A DNA stretch of 64,000 bases from a virus. The stretch lies in IMG/VR virus record IMGVR_UViG_3300005529_000003, positions 30,831 through 94,830 of that record; one strand, written 5' to 3'. Both the position numbers and the translations under genes were made by a program. This document shows positions 20 to 57,303 of the stretch, piece after piece (the stretch's first letter is position 1; every line of letters begins with the position of its first letter). The notes under the pieces are model-generated. The model ran no database searches. It was not told where the DNA came from and was given only the letters and a program-made list of their open reading frames with translations.

Positions 20-58
20 AAAGTTTTCTCTCCTTCACTGAGGACAAGAGAAGACTTT
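20..58. repeat. 39-bp dyad element (17-5-17), copy 1
   Basis: aaagttttctctccttc-actga-ggacaagagaagacttt. Confidence 0.7.
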
Positions 59-151
59 TCACGGAGGAGGACGCGCCGTGAGTGACAACATCATGAGGGC
101 GACGAGCAACAACGCGGCGATGTACGGAATCGCCTCAACGATACGTTTCAT
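59..151 (-). CDS. Small putative membrane peptide (30 aa)
   Basis: MKRIVEAIPYIAALLLVALMMLSLTARPPP; start overlaps the stop of 148..621 (ATGA); below the ORF-track size cutoff. Confidence 0.4.
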   Translation of the reverse strand: MKRIVEAIPYIAALLLVALMMLSLTARPPP

Positions 152-621
152 TTGAGTTCTCCTCGGGCTTTCCTGAGCGAGTTCTGGTACTCTCTCGGAT
201 GTTTGCTCTTCCACTTCACCCACGCTGGTAGAAGGATCTTATATGCCCCACAGCACGTCGGGCTTTCGGCATATTGTAGTGTGTACTTGTGTTTATCCTC
301 TATAATTACGAAAAGACGACTGGGTAAAGCTGCTGGCGATTGTTTTGAAGTCTCGTTTACGCACCCATCAAAATTTTGCCAGTCAAACGAAAGCGTGTCC
401 CATCTACTCTTCGTTGTGCCCCACCTTCCTGATTCATAAGCTTCCTGACTAACCGTGTGGATAAAAGGTCTTAGCTCAAGCTCCCACACCCACCGCCAGA
501 ACTCAGCCTCCTCCAGGCGGTCGTTGTCCTCGAGCCAGTCGCAGTAGTACGGGAGGTCCTTGAGTTTCCCCTGCTCGATCCTGGCGAGAAAGCCCTCCTC
601 TGTTCTTTCTGTGGTGGTCAT
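148..621 (-). CDS. Hypothetical protein with TIGR02996-like N-terminal motif
   Basis: EEGFLARIE...YYCDWLEDNDRLEEAEFWR resembles the 'FL..I...vYADWL.E.G...rAEfiR' motif; GAGG SD. Confidence 0.55.
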   Translation of the reverse strand: MTTTERTEEGFLARIEQGKLKDLPYYCDWLEDNDRLEEAEFWRWVWELELRPFIHTVSQEAYESGRWGTTKSRWDTLSFDWQNFDGCVNETSKQSPAALPSRLFVIIEDKHKYTLQYAESPTCCGAYKILLPAWVKWKSKHPREYQNSLRKARGELK

Positions 622-623
622 CT

Positions 624-797
624 CTAGTACCTCGTATCTTGTTCTGAGTGGATCAAATCCTCGCTGTCTCTGAACTCGACGTCGGCGTACGTCAACGACT
701 CTTCGCCTGAGACTTTCTTACCTGCGTGAAATAACATCCAGGAGGCGAAGAGTAGAGGCAGGGCGATGAGTTGCCTAATAAACCAGAGCGCTTTCAT
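624..797 (-). CDS. Small hypothetical protein with hydrophobic N-terminus (57 aa)
   Basis: Hand-translated MKALWFIRQLIALPLLFASWMLFHAGKK...; fills the gap in the operon. Confidence 0.4.
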   Translation of the reverse strand: MKALWFIRQLIALPLLFASWMLFHAGKKVSGEESLTYADVEFRDSEDLIHSEQDTRY

Positions 798-1224
798 TCT
801 TTGCTCTTTCTTGTTTTTCTTCTCGCCATTCTTTCCAGGCGTTGAAGAGTGCCTCTTCTGCGTTCTGAAGAGATGAAAACCCTTTCCATCCTTCTTGTTT
901 TCGTTCCCTCTTCACTTTGTCGAAGAGTTCCTTACAGAGGTAATCTCCTCTGTTCTCTTTAACTCCTATTGGTTCCCCAGGCCAGTAAGACCAATCTTCC
1001 TTGCCGTCACCTGTTGTCGTTCCTCCATATCCGTAGAGAGAAGGCAGCAGCTTCCTCTCAAGCAGCCACTCCTGAAATTGTGCGAAGTAGTCGTTGTCTT
1101 CCTCGTCGCGAATCCACCAGATGAACGCCTCCTTGCTTGAAGGTGCTCTTAGCCTTTCGCAGCGTTCATCCCAGTAGTCCTTAACCTCTTGTTCGAGGAT
1201 CTTGTACCAGTCACTCCTCGTCAT
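775..1224 (-). CDS. Hypothetical protein (Trp-rich, weakly similar to 148..621)
   Basis: ORF with likely start MTRSDWYK overlapping the upstream gene end. Confidence 0.55.
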   Translation of the reverse strand: MTRSDWYKILEQEVKDYWDERCERLRAPSSKEAFIWWIRDEEDNDYFAQFQEWLLERKLLPSLYGYGGTTTGDGKEDWSYWPGEPIGVKENRGDYLCKELFDKVKRERKQEGWKGFSSLQNAEEALFNAWKEWREEKQERAKNESALVY

Positions 1225-1696
1225 TGATCTTCTCCGGCGTCTTCTGTGTCTCTTGCTTTTCCCACGGGTAACGAGCGGCGAGGCACGCATTCACGGACAA
1301 CGGCTCGAGGTCCTCCCACATCTTCTGCACCTTCTCTTCGGGGACGCCGTGCGCGTTCGGGTAGCCGCCCTCGCAACGAATGAAGACGATTGTCGCGTTG
1401 TACTTCATGCCCAACTCGACGTAAGGGCGAGCTTCCCAAGCCTTGATGTTCGTGTTGTCCACGATCACGTTGTGCCCGTTCATCAGCAACGCCTCAACGC
1501 GGATCTGGTTGTAGCGGTGGAACTCCTGGAGCTTCTCGGGCTTGAAGACGTACGCTCCGGTCACATTGTCGATGAAGTACTCGTCCGTCGAGCAGATCTT
1601 GAAGCGAGGTTGTGCGTTCCTCCAGCCGTTGTTCAACTCGTTGGCGAATGTGGACTTCCCCGAGCCTGGCGGGCCTTGCATGATCACGAGGTACAT
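1211..1696 (-). CDS. P-loop kinase, AAA_33 / N4BP2-like polynucleotide-kinase family
   Basis: Walker A GPPGSGKST, CSTDEYF, VIVDNTN, HGVPEEKV motifs; AGGAG SD. Confidence 0.85.
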   Translation of the reverse strand: MYLVIMQGPPGSGKSTFANELNNGWRNAQPRFKICSTDEYFIDNVTGAYVFKPEKLQEFHRYNQIRVEALLMNGHNVIVDNTNIKAWEARPYVELGMKYNATIVFIRCEGGYPNAHGVPEEKVQKMWEDLEPLSVNACLAARYPWEKQETQKTPEKINDEE

Positions 1697-1731
1697 CGAT
1701 GTCTCCTTGTTCGTTCTGGTCTTGAAGTCGG

Positions 1732-2094: not shown

Positions 2095-2121
2095 TCTTGT
2101 CTCCTGAACTTGATGTGTAAG

Positions 2122-2201: not shown

Positions 2202-2203
2202 AT

Positions 2204-2242
2204 AAAACCTCCCGACGCTTCTCTTGCGATGGCGTCGGGAGG
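2204..2242 (-). terminator. Intrinsic terminator-like hairpin
   Basis: 11-bp stem cctcccgacgc/gcgtcgggagg followed by TTTT on the minus strand. Confidence 0.55.
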
Positions 2243-3234: not shown

Positions 3235-3273
3235 TTCGATCTTCTCGCCTCGTTTAGGAGTGAGAGAAACTTT
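3235..3273. repeat. 39-bp dyad element, copy 2
   Basis: ttcgatcttctcgcctc-gttta-ggagtgagagaaacttt (left arm degenerate). Confidence 0.6.
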
Positions 3274-3432: not shown

Positions 3433-3471
3433 AAAGTCTTCTCTACTCCTTAGTGGAGGAGAGAAGACTTT
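3433..3471. repeat. 39-bp dyad element, copy 3
   Basis: aaagtcttctctactcc-ttagt-ggaggagagaagacttt. Confidence 0.75.
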
Positions 3472-4024: not shown

Positions 4025-4063
4025 TAAGTTCTATCCGCCTCAATTAGGAGTGGAGAGAACTTT
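4025..4063. repeat. 39-bp dyad element, copy 4
   Basis: taagttctatccgcctc-aatta-ggagtggagagaacttt. Confidence 0.7.
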
Positions 4064-4077: not shown

Positions 4078-4121
4078 GAAAAAGAAAACGAGCCTCTCCA
4101 CCGAGATGAAGAGGTTCGTTT
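4078..4121 (-). terminator. Terminator-like hairpin after the 950-aa gene
   Basis: aaacgagcctct/agaggttcgttt stem with an A-run on the + side (U-tract on -). Confidence 0.55.
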
Positions 4122-4133: not shown

Positions 4134-6986
4134 TCACGCGGAAATCAATTCTGCGACTTCTTTGACTTCCGCCTCCTGAGTAAGGCGGAACTGCTCGACG
4201 TGATCCCCTAGATCTTCCGGGCAGACCCAGTCTAGTTCGGGCTCGTGGTCCAGTGCCTTGCCGACTGTCTCGGTGCAGAGGGCTGAGGCGACGTACATCC
4301 TTTCCTTGATCGTTTCCAGCCGCTCCTTGCTTTCCATGAGGAAGTCTGCGAGTTCCAACGCGACTCCTTCGTTACGTCCGATGGCGTACTGGATGGCGAG
4401 CGGATCGATTTCCATGCCGTTCACCTTCGCGAGTACCTTTGCGTACGTCTGGCGAAGCAGTTCGAGCCCTGAGACTTTCGCCGTCTCTTCACGATCGACG
4501 TAGATGATCTTCTCGTGGTCGTTCTGGTTCTTCCTTGCTTTCTTCTTTCGTTGAGACGCTGGAATCATTCTTGCGTTCAGCGAGCGGTTCCGGCCGATCC
4601 ATTCCTTGAACCACTGGCCTCCTTGCTCGATCTGGCGGGCTACGTCGTCGATTGTCTCGACCTGGAGTAGCCTCTTGCGAATGATCGTTGCTGCCTCTGT
4701 CAGGAGTTTCTCTCCCTGAGCTTCGAGTCTCTCGGCCGTTCGCTCCAGGGCGGCTCGCAGCCTCTTCTGTCGGTCGATGTCCTCCTTCTTCCTGGGGTTT
4801 GCAGCCAGCATGTCCACTGCGTCAGCCGCGGAGTAGAGCGACTTGAACTCTGCCTCCTTCGCGATCGTGCAGAGCCTCGATGAATCGATCGGTTTCGTGT
4901 CGAGCCTCTCCAGTTCGTTGATCATCCTGATCAGGGTCCGCCAGGCGTTCTCTTCCGCCCGTCGTTCTGCCTTGAACTTCCACTTGCCGCAGCGACGTAG
5001 CGTTCTTGCCATGACGCCCTCGATCGTGTTCCTGAGCTTTGCCTCCTCTTCGAAGATGTCCTGGAGAACGTCCTTGAGGTACTCCGCGTTAGACTTCATG
5101 TCCTCCTGGACGTCTCTCGGTTGCTGGCGGTAGGTCGCCCGCATTGATTCGAGTTCCTTCTCGATCGTCTGTCGCTCGTTGTTCTTCTTGAGCAGCGAAG
5201 CCTCGTGCCATTCCATCGATCGTCGCTCTGACTCGACGTAGAACGTCTCTGGATCGAAGCTGAGAGGCGATGGAGGAATGTAGTCGAGTGGCTCCTCACT
5301 CGCCAGTTCGAATTCCTCCCTGTCGAATGGATCGTTCTCTAGCCAGTCCTGAGCGTTGTGCTGCTTCCTGCTCGACGCAAGCTCCTCCAGGCAGGCGTCG
5401 AGTTCTTCGTGAGTGCCGAAGATCCACTTTGACGGCGGATCGTCCTCGTCTGCTCGTTCTTGCTCTCGCGTCTTGACGACTTGTAGCCAGATCGGAATGC
5501 CACAGAGGCGTGAAGGCAGAAACTCCTGACCGGACTTCGATGTGACGAACTCGCAGACGTCGAGCTTGTGCTGGTGTCTCGACTTCATGTCCGTCCTGTT
5601 CTGACGCAGTTTCATCCACTGCGTCATCCACTCCCTGAATGCCCCGTACACCTTCATCTGGTGGACATACGGCTTGCCCGCTTCCGCGAGTGCTTCTGCC
5701 TCTTTCGATGTGGTGACGATGGGCAGTCTTGTGCCGTCGTCACGAACGTCGAGCATGTATCTCGACTTCCTTGTGTTGCCGTCCTTCTCGCCTGCTCCTG
5801 GGAAGAAGAACCCTTCCCCGAGCATGTCGTCGATCTTGTCGAGTGGGATGAAGCAGAGCGGGCTGTAGACCTTGACCTCTTGTTTCTCCTGCGTCTTCCT
5901 GTTTGCGACGTCGTACTGCGTCACGGCGAGTTCTACTTTTGTCGGGAACTCCACTAGGCCCTTGCCGTCGTTGAACACCAGCGGCGTGAGGCTCGGGCGA
6001 GCGTAGAGCGTCCGCTCGATGACCATCAGCTCCAGCTCCTCGATCGCCTTCCTTGTTGCTCGATTCACCTTGATTCCGTGGAGTGAAGCTCCGAAGTCCA
6101 TCACGAACTTGGATCGCCCCGGTCCTCCTGTCTTCGGGCGGTTCTTGATGTCCTCCATGATCGTGCCGACGCATATCTTCCTGGGCAGTCCCGGAGCGTA
6201 TCCCCACTTGCCACTGATCTCGTCCTGCTTCAGGTTCAGGAACGACAGGCAGGGCAGGAGAGAGTCTCGCTCGAATCCGTCTGGGTCGAAGACGTGATGC
6301 GACTTCGCCGTGCTGATCGTCTTCTGGGCGAGGTCGTTGAAGGTGTATACTGGCCGCTTGAAGCTCCATGCCGTGAAGCCGAGGGCCTTGAACTCCTCTC
6401 GCTCCTGGCGGACGAAGTTTCCTTCACGCGGCATCTTGCCAACGAGTTTGTCGTACACCTTGTATCCCTTCGACGGGACGACGACTGAGAACTCGATGCC
6501 CTTGTCGCAGATCTTCCTGACTCGAGAGAGGAACTGGCCTTTTGTCTTCTCACTGGCTGCCGCTGAGAGGACGATGATCGCGTACTCGTTACGCTCTGGA
6601 AGAGCGTTCCCCTTGATTGGCCGTCCGCTCTGTCTCGTTGACGAGGCAATCACACCGAGGATCTCCGCCTCGCTCCCTCCTTTCCAGAGCATGGCGTCCT
6701 CGATCTGCTCGATCTCGAAGCCGTAGGGGAGGATGCAGACCGCCGATCTCTCCTTCGTTCTTCTGGCGGGAAGTTCCTGCTCTCCTGAGATTTCTTGCTT
6801 CAGGGGAATGTCGTCGTGAGCGTTGCTGAAGGCTGCACTTTTCTTCTCTTCTTCGGGAAATACCTTGCGCCTGAGTTGTGCAGTCTTGTTCTCGTGTTCG
6901 CGTGTCCACGCTTGGAGGTACAGCGGCATCATCCTGGCGAGATGAGGGTCTTGACTGAGGATTTCCGAGCATGTAAGATGCTTCAT
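4134..6986 (-). CDS. Large hypothetical protein (950 aa), C-terminal half coiled-coil-like
   Basis: Long ORF with AGGAG SD; no recognised catalytic motif. Confidence 0.85.
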   Translation of the reverse strand: MKHLTCSEILSQDPHLARMMPLYLQAWTREHENKTAQLRRKVFPEEEKKSAAFSNAHDDIPLKQEISGEQELPARRTKERSAVCILPYGFEIEQIEDAMLWKGGSEAEILGVIASSTRQSGRPIKGNALPERNEYAIIVLSAAASEKTKGQFLSRVRKICDKGIEFSVVVPSKGYKVYDKLVGKMPREGNFVRQEREEFKALGFTAWSFKRPVYTFNDLAQKTISTAKSHHVFDPDGFERDSLLPCLSFLNLKQDEISGKWGYAPGLPRKICVGTIMEDIKNRPKTGGPGRSKFVMDFGASLHGIKVNRATRKAIEELELMVIERTLYARPSLTPLVFNDGKGLVEFPTKVELAVTQYDVANRKTQEKQEVKVYSPLCFIPLDKIDDMLGEGFFFPGAGEKDGNTRKSRYMLDVRDDGTRLPIVTTSKEAEALAEAGKPYVHQMKVYGAFREWMTQWMKLRQNRTDMKSRHQHKLDVCEFVTSKSGQEFLPSRLCGIPIWLQVVKTREQERADEDDPPSKWIFGTHEELDACLEELASSRKQHNAQDWLENDPFDREEFELASEEPLDYIPPSPLSFDPETFYVESERRSMEWHEASLLKKNNERQTIEKELESMRATYRQQPRDVQEDMKSNAEYLKDVLQDIFEEEAKLRNTIEGVMARTLRRCGKWKFKAERRAEENAWRTLIRMINELERLDTKPIDSSRLCTIAKEAEFKSLYSAADAVDMLAANPRKKEDIDRQKRLRAALERTAERLEAQGEKLLTEAATIIRKRLLQVETIDDVARQIEQGGQWFKEWIGRNRSLNARMIPASQRKKKARKNQNDHEKIIYVDREETAKVSGLELLRQTYAKVLAKVNGMEIDPLAIQYAIGRNEGVALELADFLMESKERLETIKERMYVASALCTETVGKALDHEPELDWVCPEDLGDHVEQFRLTQEAEVKEVAELISA

Positions 6987-7718: not shown

Positions 7719-8071
7719 CTCCCAAATGTCCTTGCTTCCTTTTACATCGGCGAAGCTAATTCCGCTCCTGGCTGGAGTAAGAGAGATATCGAAGACACGA
7801 TCCTCGACCCCCTTCCTACACTCAGGAGTACAGGGGAGACTTTTTTTCGAGGCGAGCGGCAGCGTATCGAGCGACTCCTTCTCGGATTGTTCATTCCGCT
7901 TGTGTTGTCTGTTTCCTAAAGTTTCCTTTCCCTCCTATCAAGAAGGAGAAGGAGACTTTTCTTACCGAACCACAACGCTTGAAAGACAACCCTTCAGAGT
8001 GATTTTACCGATCTGGAGGATTGCCGATCAAGTGTGTGCAATGTCGTGAGACGGTCTGTGCTGGCTTAGCA

Positions 8072-9961: not shown

Positions 9962-10006
9962 AGACTCTCTCTAACTTCTTAATGTGTAAGAAGTTAGAGA
10001 GAGTCT
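9962..10006. repeat. Perfect 20-bp inverted repeat with 5-nt spacer
   Basis: agactctctctaacttctta-atgtg-taagaagttagagagagtct. Confidence 0.9.
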
Positions 10007-10030: not shown

Positions 10031-10195
10031 TCATGCTGCTCCATTTGCACTTACGACGACCTCCGAAACACTCTCTCCATTTGCACACGAAGGGCAGTAC
10101 TCGTCGCCGTAGAGAGTGCGAATGAGTAAGCAGCCGCAGTCGCTGCACCGCTCGTCCTCGTGGCACTCCGCCTCGATGTCGCGTTCTTCCGTCAT
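10031..10195 (-). CDS. Small Zn-ribbon protein
   Basis: MTEERDIE...CSDC...CPSC; ATGA overlap with the upstream gene. Confidence 0.55.
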   Translation of the reverse strand: MTEERDIEAECHEDERCSDCGCLLIRTLYGDEYCPSCANGESVSEVVVSANGAA

Positions 10196-10593
10196 GATGT
10201 TTCTCCAGTGTTTTCCTGGGTTTGCTGTGTCTGTTGAGACTTCATCCACTCGATGCACTTCATGATGACGTCGCAGTGGCAAGCTAGTGGCGAGCACCAG
10301 CAGCCGAGATCGAGTTCGGGATGCTCGATTAGAAACTGAAGAGCAGCGACGACTGGCTCGTATCCATCCTGGATGCACTGCCACAGGTCCTTCTTAAATG
10401 CTGGAATCGCCTCACCACGTTTGTGAATCACTGTCTTGCCCTCGGCGTCTCTGCACCAAGGACAGGCACGGTGGATCGGATGTTCGTTGGCGAGAGGCGA
10501 AAGAGGCCATCCGTTACAGGCCCGACCGCAGTAGTAGATTCGCTTGGCTCGTGGTGATCCAGGGCGAATCCCTTTCACGTTGACGACTTTCAT
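10192..10593 (-). CDS. DUF4326 family protein
   Basis: KVVNV..., YYCGR...SPLAN, LGCWCSPLACHCDVI. Confidence 0.8.
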   Translation of the reverse strand: MKVVNVKGIRPGSPRAKRIYYCGRACNGWPLSPLANEHPIHRACPWCRDAEGKTVIHKRGEAIPAFKKDLWQCIQDGYEPVVAALQFLIEHPELDLGCWCSPLACHCDVIMKCIEWMKSQQTQQTQENTGETS

Positions 10594-10799
10594 CTTGGCT
10601 CCCAGGTGTTGTTGTCGAGTTCTTCTTGGGCTGTTTCTCTGGTGCGGAAGTAGTCAGATTCTCTGGAGTACGGGCCGCACTTGCAGATCGTGCCGATGTA
10701 GAAGCCCGCGGCCGATCGACAGACTTGCATCTGAAGTTTCGTTCCGCACTCAGAGCAGACGGGACTCGCACCACTGAGGATCGTTTCACCAGGAAGCAT
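10590..10799 (-). CDS. Small Cys-containing phage protein
   Basis: CSEC...VCRSAAGFYIG...CGPYSRESDYF. Confidence 0.6.
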   Translation of the reverse strand: MLPGETILSGASPVCSECGTKLQMQVCRSAAGFYIGTICKCGPYSRESDYFRTRETAQEELDNNTWEPR

Positions 10800-11263
10800 C
10801 ACTGATTCTCCTCTGCTTGTTTGAGTTCGTTGCGGACTTGCATGAGCAGCTTGCCGAGATAATTCTCGCCGACGCCGTTGCAAACTCCCCAGAAGACGTC
10901 ACCCCAGGTGTTCGCTTCCACGAGTTCTTCCTCACCCGTCGCCAGGAGCTTCTCTTTCAGGGACGAGATGGCGAACTTCTGTCGCAGCAGTCTCAGCATT
11001 ACCTCCAGCTTGATATCATCCCAGTCTGTTCGAACAGTCGATTGAAGTCCTCTTGCTGTTCGCTTTGCTGCTGCTGGCGTCTCACAGAGCAGGATCGCCT
11101 CACGAGCAGAGCGATCATCGCCTTGCCGAATGACTCCAGGGAAGAACTTTGCCCACTGATACGCCTGCTCGACAGAGTGAAACAGCGTGCCGTCTTTCGC
11201 CTTCACTTCACAAGCCCAGAAGTTCGAGAGCCAGCGGTATTCGCCAAAGAATCCAGCGATCAT
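10799..11263 (-). CDS. NADAR (YbiA/DUF1768) family N-glycosidase
   Basis: WLSNFW, SVEQAYQWAKF, WDDIKLEVM...KF, LLATG..ELVE...DVFWG...GENYLGKLLMQVR. Confidence 0.93.
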   Translation of the reverse strand: MIAGFFGEYRWLSNFWACEVKAKDGTLFHSVEQAYQWAKFFPGVIRQGDDRSAREAILLCETPAAAKRTARGLQSTVRTDWDDIKLEVMLRLLRQKFAISSLKEKLLATGEEELVEANTWGDVFWGVCNGVGENYLGKLLMQVRNELKQAEENQ

Positions 11264-11337
11264 CTTCCGCTCCTTCACCAGACTTGTAAGCGAGCAAGAG
11301 CGAAACATTCACTCTATCAAACTCACTTACACTCCAA

Positions 11338-11362: not shown

Positions 11363-11628
11363 AGCCGTCGAGACAGCGTCCATCTCTAACACCACGAATA
11401 ACAACTTCTCTCCAACCGACGATGAAGAGAGTGGAGAGATTTTCTATTATTCACAGAGCGTGTGGTTAGTCTGGCTACCTAAACACACTGTCAGAAATGG
11501 TTCTTTCTGCTTCTGAGCAAAAACTTTTCACGCCCTTTTCTTGTCGTCATTAACGCACCTGGCGAAGTTTTTTCTGCTTATCGCTTAAGGACTTATGGAA
11601 TCGAAGATGATTTCCTGTTCACTTTTCC

Positions 11629-11658
11629 TTGACAAGTTGTTTTAAAGTATGCTACACG
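11629..11658 (+). promoter_or_regulatory. Candidate sigma70-type promoter
   Basis: TTGACA-18 nt (ending TGC)-TACACG; overlapped by palindrome acgctct-tag-agagcgt (11656-11672). Confidence 0.4.
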
Positions 11659-11664
11659 CTCTTA

Positions 11665-12160
11665 GAGAGCGTTCCGCAGCGTCCTATCTGCTATTCCACG
11701 ATCCTCCAAAGCGGTAAAACAGCAAGGATTGTTTCAGCGGTGGACAAGTTGGTTCCACCTGTCCACATCATCTCATCGAGGTTTTCGATGTGGACAGGTC
11801 TCTGATGTGGAATCTTAAAAGCTTCCTCCGCTCCTCTGTAGGAGTTGAGAGACGAGAAAGTTGTCAGTCCAGAAGCAAGGCTCTGGGCACTTGGGGACCA
11901 AAGGAAGAAGCAGAAATAACGTTCTCGGGCCTTGGGCCTTGATGAGGGTGTGAAGTTCTTCTTCCTCTTCCCGCCTCGTGACGGTCCCCAACACCCACAC
12001 ATGGCTCTGAAGCTCGCTTGACGAACAACAACGAGCAGCGAGTGACTGACAGCAGCCTGGACGAGTGACGAACAACGAAGAGGGACAGCCAACTTCTCTT
12101 TCTTCGCTGGGGAGTAAGAAGAGACTTTTGAAGTTCTCTTCTTCCACTTGTCCATTTCGA
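11665..12160. ncRNA. Candidate long structured non-coding RNA
   Basis: No credible ORF; many nested stems (see findings). Confidence 0.45.
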
Positions 12161-12690: not shown

Positions 12691-12785
12691 GTGATTCTCC
12701 TGGCTGGAGTGAGAGTTTACCAGAAACGAAGAGAGCCGCCTCGATCGTGAGACGGCTCGAAACTTTTCGGGACAGAGTGAGTCGC

Positions 12786-13459: not shown

Positions 13460-13497
13460 AAAAAGAAAAACCCCTCAGCCTTGTAGACTGAGGGGTT
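13460..13497 (-). terminator. Intrinsic terminator
   Basis: aacccctcag/ctgaggggtt stem plus U-tract on minus. Confidence 0.75.
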
Positions 13498-13516
13498 CGT
13501 GTTTGTGTCGTGACGA

Positions 13517-13777: not shown

Positions 13778-13849
13778 CGTCAGTCTCCTTTCGTGTGATC
13801 AGTTGTCGCGAATGCAACACGCATCCACCTAACAACTGATTCACATCCT

Positions 13850-13873
13850 GAATGCAAAGCGACAAACCGTTCA
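13850..13873 (-). promoter_or_regulatory. Conserved upstream motif, copy 3
   Basis: TGAACGGTTTGTCG-CT-TTGCATTC, ~73 nt upstream of the 13777 start. Confidence 0.55.
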
Positions 13874-14127
13874 GTTTCTTGAGTCGTGCGTACGTCGTTG
13901 TGTCTTCTAGCTCTTGAAGCCCAAAACACAACGAGTAGACCCCCGTACCCCCTCCAGATCATCACAGCAATCAATGAAACACTAACGGGGCTCCTTACAG
14001 AAACCCAAAGGATTTTCAAAGTTGGGATACTTTGCGAGTCTTTTATTCGATTTGAATCAACTCGAGACGTGTCAGAAAAACTGGTACGAATTTCTTACAA
14101 AAAAATCACAGGAGTTCATAACTTTTT

Positions 14128-14181
14128 CATGCAATGCGTTGCATGTTATCTTTCCTTTTAGTTATCGAGTTCTCGATAACT
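14128..14181. promoter_or_regulatory. Candidate operators in the divergent immunity region
   Basis: Palindromes catgcaa-tgcg-ttgcatg (14128-14145) and agttatcgag-tt-ctcgataact (14160-14181) in AT-rich DNA upstream of the repressor. Confidence 0.5.
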
Positions 14182-14265
14182 CGAGGTGACGCTTTGCATC
14201 AACAGCGATCACTTCTTCACAAATTCGTAACGAAACAAACAAGAACGGAAAGAAAGTAAAAGAAC

Positions 14266-45395: not shown

Positions 45396-45427
45396 CGGTC
45401 GTTTAACAACCCGAAACACTTAACGCC

Positions 45428-45901
45428 TCAGTCTTGATTGACTGAGGCGTTTTCTTTTTCTTCTTGGTCTAGATCAAGGCCGAATTTCTTTCTGTTCTCT
45501 TCGGAAACAGAAGGAATGACGCCGATTTTCATCGGTCGTAGTTCAACAAGTTGAATTTCCATCTCGTCATACAATTCCTTGTTAACTGACGTACGCCATG
45601 CATATATCCCCTGACTCCAATCTGTGTACCTCTGGGTTGCCGTGTCGGTAATCGCCCCGCGAGCTGCACTCACCGACTTGTAACGACCCATTTTCGAGCC
45701 GTCCTTCTTCGAGACAACCTCGTAATACGCCTCAGAGACGCCTGCCTTGACTCGCATCTGAGCAGCCTCGATCTTGCGATCATTGTCTTGCTCTTCCAGC
45801 CAGTCCCCGTAAGCTGCCGCAGCCGCCGTTCGCTCTGACCAATTCCCTTCTCTGATCGCCTTCTTGAACTCCCTCTCGATAGGGTCTGTGACCTTCTTCA
45901 C
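45428..45901 (-). CDS. Hypothetical protein with TIGR02996-like motif
   Basis: AAYGDWLEEQD...EAAQMRVKAGVS; paralog of 45898..46353. Confidence 0.65.
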   Translation of the reverse strand: MKKVTDPIEREFKKAIREGNWSERTAAAAAYGDWLEEQDNDRKIEAAQMRVKAGVSEAYYEVVSKKDGSKMGRYKSVSAARGAITDTATQRYTDWSQGIYAWRTSVNKELYDEMEIQLVELRPMKIGVIPSVSEENRKKFGLDLDQEEKENASVNQD

Positions 45902-47692: not shown

Positions 47693-48107
47693 CGTACACC
47701 CCCGTCGTTTCTTCCACGTTCTTTCGTAACTCCAACGATCGCTTCACTTCCGGGATGAGGTTCGCTCGCATTTCATCACGCGGCGTATCGTCAAACCAGT
47801 TCAACCAGTATCTACATGCTGCTTTCTCCCCCATTCGCTGATCGATCTCGAAGCACATGGTTGCGAAAAATTCCTCAACCTCCATTACGGTTTCAAGTTT
47901 GTCACCGATCCAACCACAGAACCCCAAGGCACAAGCAGCTTCCACCGGCCAGGAAGCCACACAGAGAAGAGGGGGCGGTGTTGTCGTTGCTCCCTGGAGC
48001 AGCCTTTCGTCGTCTTTCTCCAGGGCAGTCAGCAGGGCCTGCAAGCCTTCTTCACTTAAAAGAGGTGCGACTCCTTGTCGCCATACTGTCTTCCACATCT
48101 CGATCAT
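47685..48107 (-). CDS. Conserved hypothetical protein (planctomycete-like)
   Basis: WKTVWRQG...LLQGATTTPPPL.CV..WPVEAAC...LNWFDDTPRDEMR; similarity recalled, not searched. Confidence 0.7.
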   Translation of the reverse strand: MIEMWKTVWRQGVAPLLSEEGLQALLTALEKDDERLLQGATTTPPPLLCVASWPVEAACALGFCGWIGDKLETVMEVEEFFATMCFEIDQRMGEKAACRYWLNWFDDTPRDEMRANLIPEVKRSLELRKNVEETTGVYGG

Positions 48108-48580
48108 GCTTCCCTCCATTCGCCGTTCGTCCACCGCTCGTAAAGCAACACCTTGCAGTCGTGGATCTTCCACACCGCCGTCTCGTTGTTCGCGGACAGC
48201 ACCTTCACGAACGCCTTGTAAACAAGCTGATCTTCCTTGTTGTGCATGTCCGCCTTCTTGACAGCCTCCAGGGGCGTATTGGCGTAAGTGAAGAGGATCG
48301 TCACTCCGTCGTTTTTCGCCAACCTCACCTCATAAAGGAGTAGAGGAGACTTTTCTTCCACCTTCTTCTCTTCTGAACTCTTTCGAGGGTTAAGCGGATT
48401 GAGTTCGATCAACTTGTCGTGGTGGTCGCTCGAAATGGCAGGAAATGCGAGAATGTTGTACATTCCCCCGTAACGGTGCTGGAACGTCAAGGAGTTGTCC
48501 ACGCAGAACTTCAGGATCTCCATGACGTTCCACGGGTACACATACGCCTCCCAGCCGTACAGGATTCGGTGATCGCTCAC
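48104..48580 (-). CDS. Hypothetical protein
   Basis: 158-aa ORF, coupled. Confidence 0.55.
   Translation of the reverse strand: MSDHRILYGWEAYVYPWNVMEILKFCVDNSLTFQHRYGGMYNILAFPAISSDHHDKLIELNPLNPRKSSEEKKVEEKSPLLLYEVRLAKNDGVTILFTYANTPLEAVKKADMHNKEDQLVYKAFVKVLSANNETAVWKIHDCKVLLYERWTNGEWREA
48315..48353. repeat. 39-bp dyad element, copy 5 (inside an ORF)
   Basis: ttcgccaacctcacctc-ataaa-ggagtagaggagacttt. Confidence 0.55.
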
Positions 48581-52363: not shown

Positions 52364-52402
52364 AAAATCTCCACCGCCTCATCATGAAGGGGTGGAGACT
52401 TT
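52364..52402. repeat. 39-bp dyad element, copy 6
   Basis: aaaatctccaccgcctc-atcat-gaaggggtggagacttt. Confidence 0.75.
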
Positions 52403-53107: not shown

Positions 53108-53108
53108 G

Positions 53109-53450
53109 TCATTCTCCGTAGTGTTTTGGGTGAAGCCCTTCTAGAAACCGCCGACGAATCTCTGTTGCCACTGGTGATGCTCCGTGGCAGCAGTCTGCCG
53201 CACGGATGATCGTATCGATGTCCCTGAAGCCAATTTCCAGTATTGTTCCCGCTTTTCGAAAATCGACCGCTGGCAGCAATTTACTTGTCCTTTTGAATAC
53301 GAGTGCCGTCAGTGGACACATCGTGCAAGTCGGTAGAGTACTATTACTCTCCTCGTAACGACTTGCACGAAGCGTCCCCAGAGGGTTCAACCTCCAGTCC
53401 ATGTCCTTCGTCTCCTCGATCACAGCAGTCATGAACTCCTCGAGCGTCAC
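53109..53450 (-). CDS. Orphan CP(L/I)TA family paralog 5
   Basis: GTG start VTLEEFM...MCPLTAL...AADC...IRRRFL. Confidence 0.7.
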   Translation of the reverse strand: MTLEEFMTAVIEETKDMDWRLNPLGTLRASRYEESNSTLPTCTMCPLTALVFKRTSKLLPAVDFRKAGTILEIGFRDIDTIIRAADCCHGASPVATEIRRRFLEGLHPKHYGE

Positions 53451-54958
53451 AGTTCTGTTCCTTTCTCTGTCTTGAGCGCGTCCAGCCGTCTCTGAATTGA
53501 AGAGGACGGTAGCGGTTTGTTGTAGTAGATTCCCGGCGACGACGCTGAAAGTGCCCACCCCGACGCGAACTCCTTTATCTGGCGGATGGCTTCTGGTGCT
53601 CTCCTGACGTTCACCGGCACTCGTTCCACAGCTTCACCGAACGAGTACCCCATCTCACTGACGAGGTAACAAAGTTGTTCCACCTCCGCTCCTGTCCATC
53701 CTTCAAGATCTCCACACGCCTTGTTGACCGCGGCGACGGAGTCCACGAGCCCCGCCTTCTTCAGGTGGTATTCGAGGATCGAGTCGCGTTCTTCTTTCGT
53801 TGGGAGGTCGAGGAAGAACGTGGCGTCAAAGCGGCCAGGGCGAAGGAACTCGTACGGAATGGAAGCGACGTTGTTTGCCGTGGCGATCAGGTAGACGTCG
53901 GCCGTCGTCTCCTGTCGCCACGTTAAGAGCGTGCCGAAGATCCTCGCCATAACTCCAGAGTCATTGGACGAGCTGCTGCCGGCAAGGTCCTTCTCGATCT
54001 CCTCCAGGCGGACCACGACAGGTGCGAGGGCCTCGAGTTGGTCGAGGACGAGGCGGAGGTTCGCCTCGCTCTGCCCAACGAGCGACCCGAGCAAGGAGCC
54101 AATCCTCAACAGGACTGTGTTCCGACCCACTTCATTCCCCAGAGCAGAAGAGAAGAGACTTTTCCCTGCCCCGGACGCTCCTACGAGACAGATCCCCTTC
54201 GCCGGCTTCTTCCTCTCAGGGCGGAAAGCCCGCAACGTGAAGTCTTTGAGGTGGGCGAGCCCCTTGACGTCCGCGAACGTCAGTGAGGAGCGCTCCATCT
54301 TCAAGAAGCCGCCCTTCTCCAGCACCTTTGCCTTCGAGTGCCAGAGGGCTTTCGGCGTCACGGGCTCGTCCCTCGCCAGACAAAGGGCCAGTTCCTGCTC
54401 GGCCTCGAAGCGCATAAGTCCCGACAACGCTTCGAGTGTCGCCTTCTGAAGTGGAGAGCCTTCTTCTCGACCGAGCGTGCGGTTGACTAGCTTCTGGATC
54501 TCCTCGTGCCCTGGAGGCTCATGGCGGAGGACAGCGATGTACGTCTGGAGTTCGTCGGGGATGTTCACGAACGGCGACAGGATGATGAAGTACGCCCCGA
54601 CGCTCTTGCCGACAGCGATCGCGTTCAAGAGCGATTGCTTGAGGTCGGGGATCTTGATAAAGTCGTGGAGGTTATGAAGGGCGATTGCGTACTTCTTCTG
54701 CGACTCCGCCGCCTCGCCGATCTTCTGGAAGACGCTCTTGATGGCATTTCCTGGAGCCATCTTGCTCCCCTCAACCGTGGGACCATCGTCATTGACTTCA
54801 CGCAGGCCGACGTCAGCATCCCAGGAGAGAAGCTGAACGTCGTGAGCAGTACACACTCGCCGCATGACTCGCTGTGTCTCGGGCGGCTCTCGTGTTTGTA
54901 CCCACATCCCCGCCGCTCCTGCCTTCAAGTGCTGTGCGAACGATTCCTCGAACTTCAT
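53447..54958 (-). CDS. Ycf46-like AAA+ ATPase
   Basis: Degenerate N-terminal AAA domain; GASGAGKS, RLEEIEK, ATANN, FLRPGRFD. Confidence 0.88.
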   Translation of the reverse strand: MKFEESFAQHLKAGAAGMWVQTREPPETQRVMRRVCTAHDVQLLSWDADVGLREVNDDGPTVEGSKMAPGNAIKSVFQKIGEAAESQKKYAIALHNLHDFIKIPDLKQSLLNAIAVGKSVGAYFIILSPFVNIPDELQTYIAVLRHEPPGHEEIQKLVNRTLGREEGSPLQKATLEALSGLMRFEAEQELALCLARDEPVTPKALWHSKAKVLEKGGFLKMERSSLTFADVKGLAHLKDFTLRAFRPERKKPAKGICLVGASGAGKSLFSSALGNEVGRNTVLLRIGSLLGSLVGQSEANLRLVLDQLEALAPVVVRLEEIEKDLAGSSSSNDSGVMARIFGTLLTWRQETTADVYLIATANNVASIPYEFLRPGRFDATFFLDLPTKEERDSILEYHLKKAGLVDSVAAVNKACGDLEGWTGAEVEQLCYLVSEMGYSFGEAVERVPVNVRRAPEAIRQIKEFASGWALSASSPGIYYNKPLPSSSIQRRLDALKTEKGTEL

Positions 54959-55259: not shown

Positions 55260-55260
55260 T

Positions 55261-55440: not shown

Positions 55441-55443
55441 TTG

Positions 55444-55671
55444 TTAACCTTTCATGAAGACCGTTTGTTCAAAGCCCTTGTGCGATACGAGCCACTCCAC
55501 AAACGCATTGTTCCATTCGTACTTTGCCTTGAACTCTCGGCCCTCAGCCGCACACACCTTTCTGAATTCGATCGCATAACAACGAGTGTCGTACGGGCCT
55601 ACCACAACGTGATGGATTGAGCCTGCGGAGTCATGCAGAATGATCGCCAATCGCAGGCTCATTATTAGCAC
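55444..55671 (-). CDS. Hypothetical protein
   Basis: 75-aa ORF. Confidence 0.45.
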   Translation of the reverse strand: MLIMSLRLAIILHDSAGSIHHVVVGPYDTRCYAIEFRKVCAAEGREFKAKYEWNNAFVEWLVSHKGFEQTVFMKG

Positions 55672-56057
55672 TCCTCTGACAGGTTCTCGAAAGTCTTGAC
55701 AGCCACGTCCGGAACAGAGATCTCTTCAGGCGGCTCGAGGGCGATCGTATCAAGCTCCAGGCCTTCCCATTCTTCTTTCCACAACTCGAATGCCCGCCCC
55801 GCTTCTGACTCTGCCCAGTTCTCCGATCGCTCGTCGGCATAGTCCGTCATGACCTGAACGACCTCGTCCCTGAAAGCCACTGCCTCCTCGATCATCTTGT
55901 TCAACCGCTTCAACGGCTCGTCGATACTCCGCTCCCACTCCCGTTGAAAAGCGTCGTTGAAGTCTGAGATCCCATTCTCAAGCTCTGATGCTGCCTCGGC
56001 CAACTCCCTGGCGAGGCGTGCTTTCTTATTCAGTTGTTCTCTGTCGAGCTTCTTCAC
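55665..56057 (-). CDS. Acidic helical hypothetical protein
   Basis: GGAGG SD; YADERSENWAESEAG motif. Confidence 0.7.
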   Translation of the reverse strand: MKKLDREQLNKKARLARELAEAASELENGISDFNDAFQREWERSIDEPLKRLNKMIEEAVAFRDEVVQVMTDYADERSENWAESEAGRAFELWKEEWEGLELDTIALEPPEEISVPDVAVKTFENLSEEC

Positions 56058-56558
56058 TTGATCAACCTCCTGATTTCTTCCTCTATCCAGTTAACAATAC
56101 GGGGCGTTACACCCTCGATCAAACTGTAAGGGCCGTCGCTGTATTTGTTAGCAACAAAAAATAGTAGAATCAGCAACACTCCGCCTGTGATCATTTGGTG
56201 TACCACAACTCCTTCCACGCTCGCCCAATTTCTTTGTCCATTTCATCCTGTTCTGGAGTTGTTTTTCCGTAGCTATCTTGAAGTGCGGGCCAGATGATTC
56301 CTGCTCCTTCCAACGCTCTTGCGATAGCAGCGATGCAGATTCCTTCCTTTCGTGCTGCTTCCAGAATGATGTGATAGTCAGTCGCACTGTTGTATTTACG
56401 CATTGCTGTTTTTCGGCCATGCCTTTCGTGAAGTTCAGTCGTGAAACGTGATTGACCACTCGCTGTAGAGAGTGATCGCCATGAATGGGTGAGCGAAGAA
56501 GTCGTGAATGAAAGCCCAAAAGAACTTCTCCTTCGCATTCTTGCAAGCCTTGCGAGGG

Positions 56559-56819
56559 TCAGTCCTCATCGTCTTCTTCCTCTTCTTCTTCTTCTTCTTC
56601 CTCTTCGGTTTCTTCAAAGACAAGCCCAAGTCCTTCGAACACACCAGCGACATGCTGAATCTGCTCCCAGTCCCATTCCTTGTCAGGATTCAGGACGTAC
56701 TTGCCAGTATCGAGGTCCATCTCCGCGTAGAAGATGTCATGGAGTTCCTCGAGTGCGACTACGAGTTCAGTGTTCGAGACAGCCTGCTTCAAGATCCTTT
56801 CGCGTTCCTGGAAAGTCAC
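56559..56819 (-). CDS. Acidic-tailed hypothetical protein
   Basis: GAGGAG SD; NPDKEW motif, poly-Glu tail. Confidence 0.6.
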   Translation of the reverse strand: MTFQERERILKQAVSNTELVVALEELHDIFYAEMDLDTGKYVLNPDKEWDWEQIQHVAGVFEGLGLVFEETEEEEEEEEEEEDDED

Positions 56820-56831
56820 CTCTTGCTCCTC

Positions 56832-57230
56832 TCAGTAAGCGGCCAACTCCAAAACAACCTCCTGGCCCTCTTCCTGCGTAGAGAGAAGCGTGAGTCCCTG
56901 CTCCTCCGCACTCACGAGGACGCTTTGCTTGGCGTACTCCCGCAAGAACTTCTTCAGCTCACTGACCTTCCCCCAGTGACCGTCCTGCACCTGGCGGATG
57001 TCGTTCACTGTCGGTGGGTTCTCGGAGTAGTTGTCAAACGTCAGCGTGCCGTCCGCGTTGAAGCAGACGGGGTAAAGCCAGTTAGGCAACTTGACCCACA
57101 TGCCATTCATCGTCCGGCTTGCGTACCCCCTGACCTCACCGACGCCGTGAACAAGACCCAACGCCTTGCAAGCCCGCTCGAACACCCTCTCGGAACGCAC
57201 CTGCGTCTTGACAGTGCTGATGTGAGACAC
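56832..57230 (-). CDS. DUF1257 (Ycf35) family protein
   Basis: GTG start (M)SHISTVKTQVR...ACKALGL...VKLPNWLYPV...FDNY...WG...YA; GGAGGA SD. Confidence 0.8.
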   Translation of the reverse strand: MSHISTVKTQVRSERVFERACKALGLVHGVGEVRGYASRTMNGMWVKLPNWLYPVCFNADGTLTFDNYSENPPTVNDIRQVQDGHWGKVSELKKFLREYAKQSVLVSAEEQGLTLLSTQEEGQEVVLELAAY

Positions 57231-57264
57231 TATTCGATCCTCCGTCTGTTTGTGTGTAAAAAGA

Positions 57265-57303
57265 AAAGTCTCCTCCACCTCATCAAGAAGCGGAAGAGAC
57301 TTT
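57265..57303. repeat. 39-bp dyad element, copy 7
   Basis: aaagtctcctccacctc-atcaa-gaagcggaagagacttt. Confidence 0.75.

Follow-up and report, generated by a model that had tools for sequence, protein, structure and literature searches.

A dispersed, transcription-oriented family of asymmetric repeat elements in the non-structural operons of a temperate phage

The phage and its repeat family

The repeat family considered here is carried by a 95-kb temperate soil phage whose host is probably a planctomycete bacterium. The window, the whole stretch of 64,000 nucleotides that was analyzed, covers positions 30,831 to 94,830 of its record (IMGVR_UViG_3300005529_000003), and coordinates refer to the window unless marked as genome positions. 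The phage encodes an integrase, an XRE repressor (14266–14511), and a YqaJ-type recombination exonuclease that starts at 58488 near a divergent region, and its leftward arms converge with rightward operons at approximately 21.7 and 76.2 kb of the genome. Ordinary promoters are read by the host polymerase, as witnessed by a consensus sigma-70 promoter at 57795–57824 on the minus strand, which matches TTGACA-18-TGnTATAAT at 12 of 12 positions. Among approximately 70 phage proteins scanned, no antiterminator, NusG-like, RNase, or sigma genes were found, and there was no Pfam match to a RAYT-type transposase. Comparison with the Rfam covariance models gave no family at or above its gathering score anywhere in the window, and around 57200–57900 just a chance-level match.

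The original prediction described a 39-bp dyad with two 17-bp arms and a 5-bp spacer. All seven copies listed there were found at the coordinates given, and each fits CYYC-N5-GRAS with an ACTTT end. The looser copies it mentioned were recovered independently at 7805–7843, 7918–7959, 11405–11443, 12090–12128, 57668–57770, and 58529–58567, and an oppositely oriented copy near 59377–59417 was confirmed on the plus strand. Copies beyond that list lie at 59045 (+) in the window and at 26625–26663, 27538–27576, and 2474 (+) in the genome. The invariant unit of these approximately 19 copies is not the dyad but an asymmetric 5′ half, consisting of an A-rich lead, AAAGT, and approximately 14 pyrimidines ending in CTCC. 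This half is kept in all 19 copies, with AAA invariant, the G present in 17 of 19, and the T in 18 of 19; G is absent from element positions 5 to 12 throughout, and the 3′ half is unconserved. The asymmetric core RAAAAGTYTC occurs in every copy, hairpin or not, and holds approximately 14 bits over approximately 10 bp. Element positions 6 to 19 are specified just as pyrimidine, with compensating purines in the other arm.

A chance origin of the family is excluded because three counts exceed expectation. First, 17-5-17 dyads with at least 13 of 17 matches number 14, compared to 1.7 ± 1.3 (maximum 6) in 100 dinucleotide shuffles, so that the dyad excess survived the composition-matched comparison. 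Second, the pattern AAA[GA]T followed by seven pyrimidines was observed 29 times, compared to 6.2 ± 2.4 in 200 shuffles. Third, 19 of these 29 matches are intergenic, with intergenic sequence making up 17.6% of the genome (p = 1.5e-8). No member of the family occurs in 1.34 Mb of sequence from 80 viral relatives or in 0.81 Mb of loci from 80 Planctomycetota genomes, approximately 2.1 Mb in total. The best covariance-model scores outside the phage were 20.4 and 16.7 bits, compared to 24 to 45 bits for the phage's own copies, which were the training set of the model. The 80 sampled viral relatives are distant, and no close relative of the phage was found for cross-genome covariation.

Placement and polarity of the copies

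The copies are housed in the three non-structural transcription arms. It had been claimed that the structural module contains none, which is correct except for one weak antisense match (22211–22248, 20 bits). That most copies are intergenic agrees with the pattern count given above, with the reservation that two copies lie in coding sequence. One of them is a listed copy, the strong half copy at 48315–48353 on the minus strand (26 bits), which is in frame inside a 158-aa ORF (48104–48580) with coding potential unbroken on either side. The predicted orientation bias is clear: stand-alone intergenic copies are 7 sense and 0 antisense, stand-alone copies overall are 14 sense and 3 antisense, and each antisense intergenic match is the partner arm of a sense match. 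Nine copies precede a start by 58–94 nt, and the full dyads are found 20–36 nt 3′ of stop codons. The gap from element to start is just 19–55 nt, and conserved −10 and −35 sequences are absent there; no motif common to these gaps was found, and the Shine–Dalgarno sequences are ordinary and varied.

In the first leftward arm, where all copies are on the minus strand, the full-geometry dyad at 20–58 (13 of 17 matches, 38.4 bits, hairpin z = −1.05, no U tail) lies 90 nt past the stop at 148 and upstream of a Y-RNA-like array left of the window. A stand-alone half copy at 3235–3273 (z = −0.6) has its 5′ end 75 nt upstream of the ATG at 3198. The strong dyad at 3433–3471 (16 of 17 matches, −22.4 kcal/mol, z = −7.4), with a U-rich, terminator-like sense tail, follows the SSB stop (3508) by 36 nt, and the dyad at 4025–4063 (12 of 17 matches, −13.7 kcal/mol, z = −4.0) precedes the SSB ATG (3999) by 25 nt. 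Ahead of the latter copy, at 4114–4093, lies a distinct hairpin that has a T-run. Farther along are a stand-alone half copy at 7805–7843 (24.3 bits, z = +0.3, hairpin in a shifted register) and a dyad with indels at 7918–7959 (−18 kcal/mol when extended, z = −2.9). A sigma-70-like site is found at 8031–8002, 43 nt upstream of this dyad. The half copy at 11405–11443, with an AAAAT head, an 8-bp stem, and a long loop (z = −2.0), marks the downstream edge of an ORF-free region, and the stand-alone half copy at 12090–12128 (z = 0.05) marks the upstream edge of the ORF-free region 11629–12160. An unstranded, perfect 20-5-20 CT/GA palindrome at 9962–10006 carries no AAAGT head on its sense side and scored 20.7 bits outside the training set; it is a related variant outside the core family.

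In the other leftward arm, also on the minus strand, the strong dyad at 52364–52402 (−21.9 kcal/mol sense, −17.6 antisense, z = −4.6, two sense-only G·U pairs) lies 26 nt past the stop at 52428 and 41 nt ahead of the ATG at 52322. The strongest sense hairpin, at 57265–57303 (−26.3 kcal/mol compared to −14.4 antisense, z = −7.3, three sense-only G·U pairs), has the tail TCTTTTT and is the top terminator-like site of its region; it closes an ORF-free unit of approximately 480 nt, 34 nt before the GTG at 57230. The composite copy at 57668–57770 forms a 103-nt hairpin (−47 kcal/mol, z = −3.1) with two inverted half-sites as its outer stem and an inner hairpin as cargo, and it begins approximately 21 nt past the predicted start of the promoter at 57795–57824. 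As this consensus promoter makes plain, the repeat element is no sigma-70 promoter itself. In the divergent region, a leftward half copy at 58529–58567 (z = −2.2) lies 79 nt upstream of the exonuclease start. On the plus strand, a half copy at 59045–59083 without a hairpin adjoins the TGA of a 131-aa gene, 58 nt before the next ATG, and the copy at 59377–59417, with an AAAT head, lies 94 nt before the ATG at 59472 and has 13 identical bases in common with the leftward copy at 58529–58567.

This distribution would suit sites of defined orientation, similar to stoperators or ESAS, at which a regulator from phage or host docks on double-stranded DNA. A monomer on RAAAAGTYTC would block or modulate polymerase in an orientation-dependent manner, and full dyads would be inverted site pairs. 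Such a function is conceivable, if somewhat unlikely. A short, high-information asymmetric core in every copy, the strict polarity with transcription, the short intergenic spaces, and a temperate phage with integrase and XRE repressor are all consistent with it, as are the copy just past the start of the strongest promoter and the one in the divergent promoter region; L5 stoperators (PMC9283540) and the ESAS of Cluster K (PMC3203893) are published examples of the same distribution logic. However, the pyrimidine-only positions 6 to 19 with their compensating purines suggest selection for pairing and not for base readout, the U tails of the best copies and their G·U pairs confined to the sense strand would be meaningless in double-stranded DNA, and the structural operon, bar its one weak match, is without copies, unlike the case of stoperators. 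The XRE protein, originally proposed as the binder, is unlikely in that role because its own divergent control region (13778–14265) contains no family copy; the palindrome repeated there is another one, ATGCAAnGCG / CATGCAATGCGTTGCATG. The stoperators of Cluster A phages share their site family with the operator at the promoter (PMC9283540).

Compared to the element described here, Cluster A stoperators (L5 gp71) are 13-mers without a dyad that occur also among structural genes (PMC9283540). Both are asymmetric and numerous, with more than 20 per genome in the case of stoperators, occupy short intergenic spaces, follow transcription in orientation, and belong to temperate phages. They differ in that the stoperator site is also the early-promoter operator, whereas the immunity region of this phage lacks the motif, and in that approximately half of the copies in this phage are hairpins, the best four with U tails. 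The closest known anatomy is that of the ESAS of Cluster K mycobacteriophages (Pope et al. 2011, PMC3203893). Like the present family, ESAS consist of two imperfectly inverted 17-bp repeats around a short spacer of variable length (4–13 bp), the left (5′) repeat being nearer to consensus than the right, and they occur in approximately 10–20 copies in the non-structural half of the genome, in one orientation and upstream of some genes. They adjoin a 13-bp SAS that overlaps the ribosome-binding site 3–7 bp from the start codon (PMC3203893). In contrast, the phage's element has no SAS and lies 19–55 nt from the start codon. Furthermore, departures from consensus in ESAS do not support RNA pairing, whereas the arms found here partly co-vary with G·U on the sense strand; the two are dissimilar in sequence, and their hosts belong to different phyla.

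Hairpins, strand bias, and terminator-like features

A real hairpin is present in about eight copies, approximately half of the family; in nine copies, the fold is not superior to those obtained after shuffling the copy's own 3′ part. Since about half of the copies hold the 5′ half only, pairing alone cannot be the selected feature. The proposal of a control system stands as far as a genome-wide, transcription-oriented family of cis-elements is concerned; mRNA hairpins, its suggested form, apply to about half of the copies and not to the rest. Covariation of the arms within copies, also predicted, is real but is carried by just four to five of them. In an arm-swap test, native hairpins averaged −13.7 kcal/mol compared to −11.0 for chimeras (p = 5e-5), with the weak copies alone giving p = 0.097. 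In-register arm pairing was 68.5% compared to 63.7 ± 1.4 in shuffles, a level reached by 0 of 500, and slid registers gave 49–59%.

The four best hairpins (genome 27538–27576; window 3433–3471, 52364–52402, and 57265–57303) fold at −22 to −26 kcal/mol. Their dyads contain eight non-Watson–Crick positions. Six of these form G·U pairs when read on the gene-sense strand, and none does so on the antisense strand; each of the six transition mismatches gives G·U on the sense strand (p = 0.016), and the sense fold is stabler by 3–12 kcal/mol in three of the four. A U-rich tail follows on the gene-sense strand, with 3–8 U in the 10 nt past the stem. The combination that defines an intrinsic terminator, a stable stem-loop with a U-rich tract, is present in these four copies and missing from the other approximately 15. 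The four look like intrinsic terminators inside operons.

Across the family, the sense-strand G·U excess is small (32 vs 24), the antisense strand folds slightly better in 10 of 18 copies, and conservation of the A-rich lead makes T-rich tails more regular on the antisense strand. The elements could be imagined as terminators facing against the genes and stopping antisense transcription that enters the early arms from the convergent operons, with the conserved half as 3′ arm plus U tract (GAGRAGAC-TTTTCTT). At least four T are found in the 10 nt past the antisense fold in 14 of 18 copies, the conserved bases are exactly stem base and tail, and the arms meet rightward operons head-on at both points of convergence. 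This role is nevertheless very improbable: stand-alone copies are unpaired at the stem base by the T tract, with a 2–4-nt gap, and fold at a mere −2 to −12 kcal/mol, the best copies favor the sense strand, one copy in the divergent region is unreachable by antisense read-through, and the invariant AC before TTT is unneeded for termination.

Sense-strand hairpins between cistrons could also be sites of RNA processing or stability, with RNase III acting on long hairpins or RNase E/Y on the A-rich lead, and polycistronic early RNA split into units with a protective hairpin at either end, as in T7. Hairpins border ORF-free, probably non-coding RNA units (20–58; 12090–12128 with 11405–11443; 57668–57770 with 57265–57303), a recurrent single mismatch at position 13/27 divides the stem into a lower part of 12 bp and an upper part of 4 bp, and the single-stranded A-rich lead lies directly 5′ of the stem. 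However, a duplex of 17–22 bp is found in just four to five copies, the remaining stems being too weak for an RNase III-type substrate, which has approximately 20 bp or more of duplex and often an internal loop; half of the copies have no stable stem, and a need for a 20-nt conserved arm is known for neither RNase III nor RNase E/Y. We regard processing as unlikely, and the T7-type RNase III sites originally proposed fit the data less well than terminators or 3′-end hairpins, given the sense-only G·U pairs and U tails of the best four. In T7, early and late RNase III hairpins, as reported by Dunn and Studier in 1983, have two stems around an internal loop. Like the present family, they comprise approximately ten or more sense-strand intercistronic hairpins with some shared sequence; unlike it, they are longer, all fold, and have no conserved single-stranded half.

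The occurrence of full-dyad doublets and singlets side by side is reminiscent of a self-propagated or recombination-spread cassette border of REPIN or PeSL type, in which inverted doublets would be active, single halves would be decayed or recombinant remnants, and any terminator effect would be a by-product. The folding energy of weak copies equals that of artificial arm chimeras (−10.4 vs −11.0 kcal/mol). Same-orientation copies bracket SSB (4063/3471), a 78–81-aa gene (59045/59377), and ORF-free units (12128/11443; 57767/57303), and both the YqaJ-type exonuclease and the 13 bases shared by two copies agree with recombination. Yet remnants would be expected in both orientations, against the 7:0 observed, keeping the 5′ half while the 3′ half decays requires selection, and neither a RAYT-type transposase in the scanned proteins nor copies in the sampled planctomycete DNA were seen, which makes such an origin quite improbable. 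The REP/REPIN sequences of proteobacteria, as reported by Bertels and Rainey in 2011, are chromosomal, present in hundreds of copies, and tied to a RAYT transposase. They can have terminator or mRNA-stabilizing side effects. The likeness lies in a short conserved head plus imperfect palindrome, hairpin doublets beside single remnants, and intergenic location; the differences are 19 copies in one phage, the strict polarity of singlets, and none in the 0.81 Mb from 80 Planctomycetota genomes. The PeSL of T4-like phages (PMC2839356, PMC4122927) are likewise dispersed, conserved intergenic cassettes of early or accessory regions, each with a stem-loop terminator and placed beside single accessory genes. 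PeSL place a sigma-70 promoter between stem-loop and Shine–Dalgarno sequence (PMC2839356, PMC4122927), whereas the element-to-start gap in this phage has neither −35/−10 sequences nor room for them, the sole consensus promoter lies upstream of a copy, and the conserved part is the 5′ arm itself.

A possible sense-strand RNA punctuation signal

The explanation that we prefer, and hold tentatively, is that the family serves as sense-strand RNA punctuation, in which a factor reading the conserved 5′ half would govern termination or processing. The family with its polarity and placement, the covarying hairpin arms of some copies, the bias of G·U toward the sense strand, and the U tails are observations, whereas termination as such, a factor, and regulation are inferred. 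The element would be a cis-acting signal of the three non-structural operons, read on the transcript or the non-template strand. Each copy would present, in RNA order, the A-rich lead, AAAGU, and the run of approximately 14 pyrimidines ending in CUCC; in approximately half of them, a purine-rich inverted copy after approximately 5 nt would allow a hairpin of 12+4 to 17 bp. The four U-tailed hairpins would act as intrinsic terminators or attenuators and as hairpins protecting 3′ ends. They lie inside operons, 20–36 nt past a stop or 34–41 nt ahead of the next start. Genes behind these terminator-like hairpins lack the space for promoters of their own, so that read-through would have to occur; given this need, the most likely role of the conserved 5′ half is to serve a trans-acting factor as its handle. 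This factor could come from phage or host and be protein or RNA. Its presence on the 5′ arm would set hairpin formation and thereby make termination or processing conditional, and copies with weak folds would offer that handle alone, with no terminator attached. The family probably represents a known general type of gene-expression punctuation whose sequence is new.

In a more specific form, which we judge distinctly unlikely, the copies would make up a conditional-termination network in which one trans factor reads the AAAGU-polypyrimidine handle on nascent RNA at approximately 19 sites and determines, for each site separately, whether a hairpin for termination or processing is formed. Candidates for this factor would be an unrecognized phage protein or the strongly promoted, ORF-free RNA of approximately 480 nt at 57788–57304, which has its own 5′ hairpin with a purine-rich complement of the handle. 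To our knowledge, the antitermination logic of such a network is undescribed for phages or Planctomycetota. If it exists, the network would time the early operons and the non-coding RNA modules of the phage.

An asymmetric element and its specificity to the phage

The element is an oriented repeat with an asymmetric conserved unit. In an alignment of 19 copies in gene sense, this unit consisted of an A-rich lead (consensus AAGA), the sequence AAAGT (AAA in 19/19 copies, G in 17/19, and T in 18/19), and a pyrimidine run in which positions 6–12 and 14–19 are almost exclusively C/T and which ends in CTCC. The region 3′ of the loop of about 5 nt is purine-rich and weakly conserved. The original prediction had described a better conserved right arm ending in ACTTT on the plus strand; this conservation is real, and it equals the 5′ half read backwards. 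The seven copies listed there were all as described, its looser copies all belong to the family, and additional members were found at window 59045 (+), genome 26625–26663, genome 27538–27576, and genome 2474 (+).

The predicted excess of dyads over composition-matched sequence was confirmed, as 14 dyads of the 17-5-17 form with at least 13/17 complementary positions were found compared to 1.7 ± 1.3 in 100 dinucleotide shuffles. Five of them are family members, and two are related, namely the inner hairpin of the composite copy at 57668–57770 (−) and the palindrome at 9962–10006. The latter is a perfect 20-5-20 palindrome between two leftward genes, built in the CT-arm/GA-arm style of the family and lacking the AAAGT head on its sense side. 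The pattern AAA[GA]T followed by seven pyrimidines occurred 29 times versus 6.2 ± 2.4 in shuffles, and 19 of the 29 matches fell in the intergenic 17.6% of the genome (p = 1.5e-8).

The repeat family is specific to this phage. At a threshold of 20 bits, a position matrix matched the phage genome 17 times and the distant relatives (1.34 Mb) once. A covariance model, the E-values of which are rough, was trained on 14 copies and scored these at 24–45 bits; its top scores elsewhere were 20.4 bits in the same relatives and 16.7 bits in planctomycete DNA (0.81 Mb). The exact half-site pattern had nine matches in viral contigs, all single and unrelated, and the element matched no family in Rfam. No close relatives of the phage were found across the phage records and the viral, genome, and metagenome contigs searched: megablast of 24 kb against phage records gave no match, the portal protein retrieved one 28%-identical fragment from viral contigs and none from genome contigs, and a single-query search with the AAA ATPase (503 aa) retrieved none from viral or metagenome contigs. 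A profile search with the ATPase retrieved 80 viral and 80 Planctomycetota loci at 30–39% identity, and these carried neither the motif nor an obvious analogous repeat family. Several of the distant viral relatives reached through the ATPase contain regular tandem arrays with 60–70-bp periods (L075/L077, 6254–6720; L081, 15163–15560; L061, 2021–2480; L066, 555–2765), which are possibly CRISPR-like or other arrays.

The IMG/VR virus record, of which bases 30831–94830 form the window, comprises 94,830 bp with a 110-bp terminal repeat, and its gene map was self-trained and home-made over the whole genome. The phage is temperate, with a tyrosine integrase (14623–15870) and an XRE repressor (14266–14511). 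Transcription is organized in four blocks. The first leftward arm, at genome 22.0–44.6 kb (window to 13.8 kb), starts from the immunity region, and the structural genes form a rightward block at window 20.8–45.4 kb. The second leftward arm (window 45.4–58.5 kb) encodes primase, the AAA ATPase, and YqaJ exonuclease; and a rightward arm that begins at window 58.6 kb and runs past the genome end as far as genome 21.6 kb encodes PolA, thymidylate synthase, PhoH, and TerL. The best homologues of the ATPase among 5.8 billion proteins searched are from Planctomycetota, which makes a planctomycete the likely host, and all 80 of its listed genome loci are Planctomycetota or unclassified MAGs. This ATPase (53447–54958, −) belongs to a large family of more than 1,600 proteins, with at least 548 genome loci confirmed, that is also present in many large viral contigs. 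The 950-aa protein at 4134–6986 (−) had no match in Pfam or PHROG and no homologue at E ≤ 0.001 among 8,000 word-sharing candidates (522–1,663 aa) of the 5.8-billion-protein collection; the 866-aa protein at 17370–19970 (−) had none above the Pfam curated cut-off (one faint match, E 0.008) and none in PHROG. No tRNA genes were found in the window.

Pairing of the arms and the sense strand

Co-variation of the arms within copies, as proposed originally, was supported for the family, in which native pairs folded at −13.7 kcal/mol versus −11.0 kcal/mol after swaps of the 3′ halves (permutation p = 5e-5), but not for the weak copies alone (p = 0.097); the signal is carried by four copies. With the 17-5-17 register kept fixed, pairing occurs in 68.5% of cells compared to 63.7 ± 1.4 with shuffled partners (0/500 reach the native value), and registers slid by 1–3 columns gave 49–59% pairing. 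When the 3′ part of each copy was shuffled, fold z-scores were −4 or lower in five copies (genome 27576; window 3471, 4063, 52402, and 57303) and −2 to −3 in three (7959, 11443, and 58567), and nine copies showed no folding excess. In the composite copy, two inverted halves form the outer stem of a 103-nt hairpin of −47 kcal/mol (z −3.1); among stand-alone copies, which have the conserved 5′ half only, it alone has a long-range partner arm. Taken together, the swap, register, and own-shuffle results mean that selection acts on pairing in about half of the family, and every copy retains the 5′ half. The earlier reading as mRNA hairpins thus applies to about half of the family but not to the nine copies that show no excess. 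That such hairpins are sites of processing by RNase III or RNase E is unlikely.

The strand evidence is clearest in the four best dyads (genome 27538–27576 and window 3433–3471, 52364–52402, and 57265–57303). Their 8 non-Watson-Crick positions include six that form G·U pairs on the sense strand, and the antisense strand has no G·U pair at any of the eight. Folding of the sense strand is favored by 3.4, 4.3, and 11.9 kcal/mol in three of these dyads. Transition mismatches favored the sense strand in 6/6 cases (p = 0.016), a count of six positions in three copies. All four have U-rich sense-strand tails, and 57303–57265 ranks first among the terminator-like sites of its region. By these features, the four best dyads resemble intrinsic terminators of the ordinary type. 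The strand signal is weak when all copies are taken together (32 versus 24 G·U pairs), and 10/18 copies have a slightly better antisense fold. A regular T tract on the antisense side is what terminators facing against the genes would provide, but the stem base beside this tract is unpaired in stand-alone copies, and terminators facing this way are very improbable.

Oriented double-stranded DNA sites, comparable to stoperators or ESAS, would account for the short, high-information, asymmetric core and for the polarity. However, they leave unexplained the pyrimidine-only positions with compensating partners and the sense G·U pairs and U tails, and the copy expected at the immunity promoter is absent; this explanation is rather doubtful. 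The XRE protein, suggested earlier as a binder, is an unlikely one because its own 488-bp divergent control region (13778–14265) has no copy of the element, and a different palindrome occurs there. The region, which separates the XRE repressor from the cro-like gene, has ATGCAAnGCG/CGCTTTGCAT in three to four copies, among them a full 18-bp palindrome, CATGCAATGCGTTGCATG, at 14128–14145. A second palindrome, AGTTATCGAG/CTCGATAACT, lies at 14160–14181. These sequences probably represent the true repressor operators.

Other candidates were rejected. No −35/−10 sequence of a sigma-70 promoter lies in or after the element, and a perfect consensus promoter was found elsewhere; the host clearly uses consensus promoters. 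A promoter for a phage RNA polymerase was discounted, as the phage proteins scanned contained neither a polymerase or sigma domain nor a DxDGD motif. Adjacent stop triplets belonged to real ORFs in one case only, against a leader peptide or post-stop signal; no SAS-like motif was present at downstream ribosome-binding sites; and the dispersal and polarity speak against integrase arm sites or a centromere.

Polarity, placement, and a possible punctuation system

Each intergenic antisense match is the second arm of a dyad with a sense first arm. Stand-alone copies are sense versus antisense in a ratio of 7:0 between genes and 14:3 when weaker coding-region matches are included, and the three copies of the rightward arm all point rightward. 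The structural module, described earlier as free of the element, has no convincing copy but does contain one 20-bit antisense match (22211–22248); the immunity/integrase module also has no convincing copy. Weak copies fold with the same energy as artificial arm chimeras, as borders of propagated cassettes of the REPIN or PeSL kind might. The 7:0 polarity of the single copies and the selective keeping of the 5′ half argue instead for function, and such borders are distinctly unlikely.

Nine copies have their 5′ end 58–94 nt upstream of a credible start codon. Full dyads, with both 17-nt arms, lie 20–36 nt past a stop codon, and in long gaps the full dyad comes first and the half copy second (e.g., 3471 then 3273). 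Three of the four best dyads are 34–41 nt before a start codon, which leaves no room for a promoter, and downstream genes must therefore be reached by read-through. The ORF downstream of genome 27538–27576 is a weak 64-aa prediction only, and the copy that follows 3433–3471 is 159 nt downstream of it. Two copies are within coding sequence. The copy at 48315–48353 is in frame in a 158-aa ORF (48104–48580, −; …EEKSPLLLYEV…) with coding potential on both sides, and this ORF may be a fusion of two genes over a former intergenic element. The copies at 58529–58567 (−) and 59377–59417 (+) have 13 identical bases in common (CTTCTGCTCCTTT), inverted and 0.8 kb apart, and flank a divergent promoter region and two small rightward genes. 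G+C-rich classical terminator hairpins with T tracts occur at 13468–13498, 45422–45451, 4093–4114, and 12733–12758, two of the four being bidirectional at convergent or operon-internal sites, and the early leftward operon has several terminators soon after its first genes.

Same-orientation copies bracket SSB, a 78–81-aa gene, and the ORF-free stretch 11629–12160. They also bracket an ORF-free stretch of about 480 nt (57304–57824, −) that starts at, and is driven by, a perfect extended sigma-70 promoter (TTGACA-18-TGnTATAAT, 57824–57795, −), with the 103-nt composite hairpin at its beginning and the terminator-like dyad 57303–57265 at its end. This stretch had no match in Rfam and could represent a non-coding RNA; alternatively, it could be a long, terminated leader of the replication operon (11 kb), like lambda PR′-tR′. 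The element brackets a Ro60-like protein/Y-like RNA module as well as these ORF-free units and therefore may mark the ends of such RNAs. Adjoining the Ro60-like module in the first leftward arm are genes for a polynucleotide-kinase-like P-loop protein (AAA_33/KTI12; 1211–1696, −), a DUF4326 protein (10192–10593, −), and a NADAR-domain protein (10799–11308, −), a set that looks like an RNA-repair or ADP-ribose-processing theme.

Beyond the observed family, polarity, placement, partial co-variation, G·U bias, and tails, we infer termination, a trans factor, and regulation, and tentatively propose a sense-strand RNA punctuation system as a possible, still less than even, explanation. Full dyads would terminate or attenuate transcription and protect 3′ ends, closing units such as the Ro60-like/Y-like RNA module (window 20–58 to genome 27538–27576), SSB, and the promoter-driven ORF-free RNA. 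A trans factor reading the conserved 5′ half is suggested because downstream genes need read-through and the 5′ rather than the 3′ arm is conserved. Binding of this factor would compete with hairpin formation and lead to conditional termination or processing.

Relation to known repeats and significance

Transcription-oriented, intergenic, phage-specific repeats are known, including stoperators, SAS/ESAS, PeSLs, and T1-type repeats, and most are mechanistically open. To our knowledge, no function has been assigned to ESAS since 2011. The ESAS of Cluster K mycobacteriophages are closest in anatomy to the element: they consist of imperfect inverted repeats of 17 bp around a spacer that varies, with a better conserved left repeat, and are found in the non-structural half only and in a single orientation, with function described as unknown (PMC3203893). 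In contrast to the element, ESAS are linked to a box at the start codon, and RNA pairing finds no support in their departures (PMC3203893). Stoperators have the polarity logic in common with the element (PMC9283540). PeSLs are likewise conceived as terminator-bearing cassettes, but with a promoter inside (PMC4122927). Because of the differences from ESAS, stoperators, and PeSLs, the element appears to be a member of none of them.

The family combines an asymmetric half under strict conservation with a co-varying hairpin and terminator that are optional, and this combination gives experiments a clean means of telling sequence reading apart from structure. The element sits in a probable phage of Planctomycetota, a phylum with scarce data on phage regulation; we know of almost no description of gene regulation in its phages. 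If the copies are ordinary terminators and their relics, they would still provide a useful map of transcription units for annotating an ORFan-rich genome.
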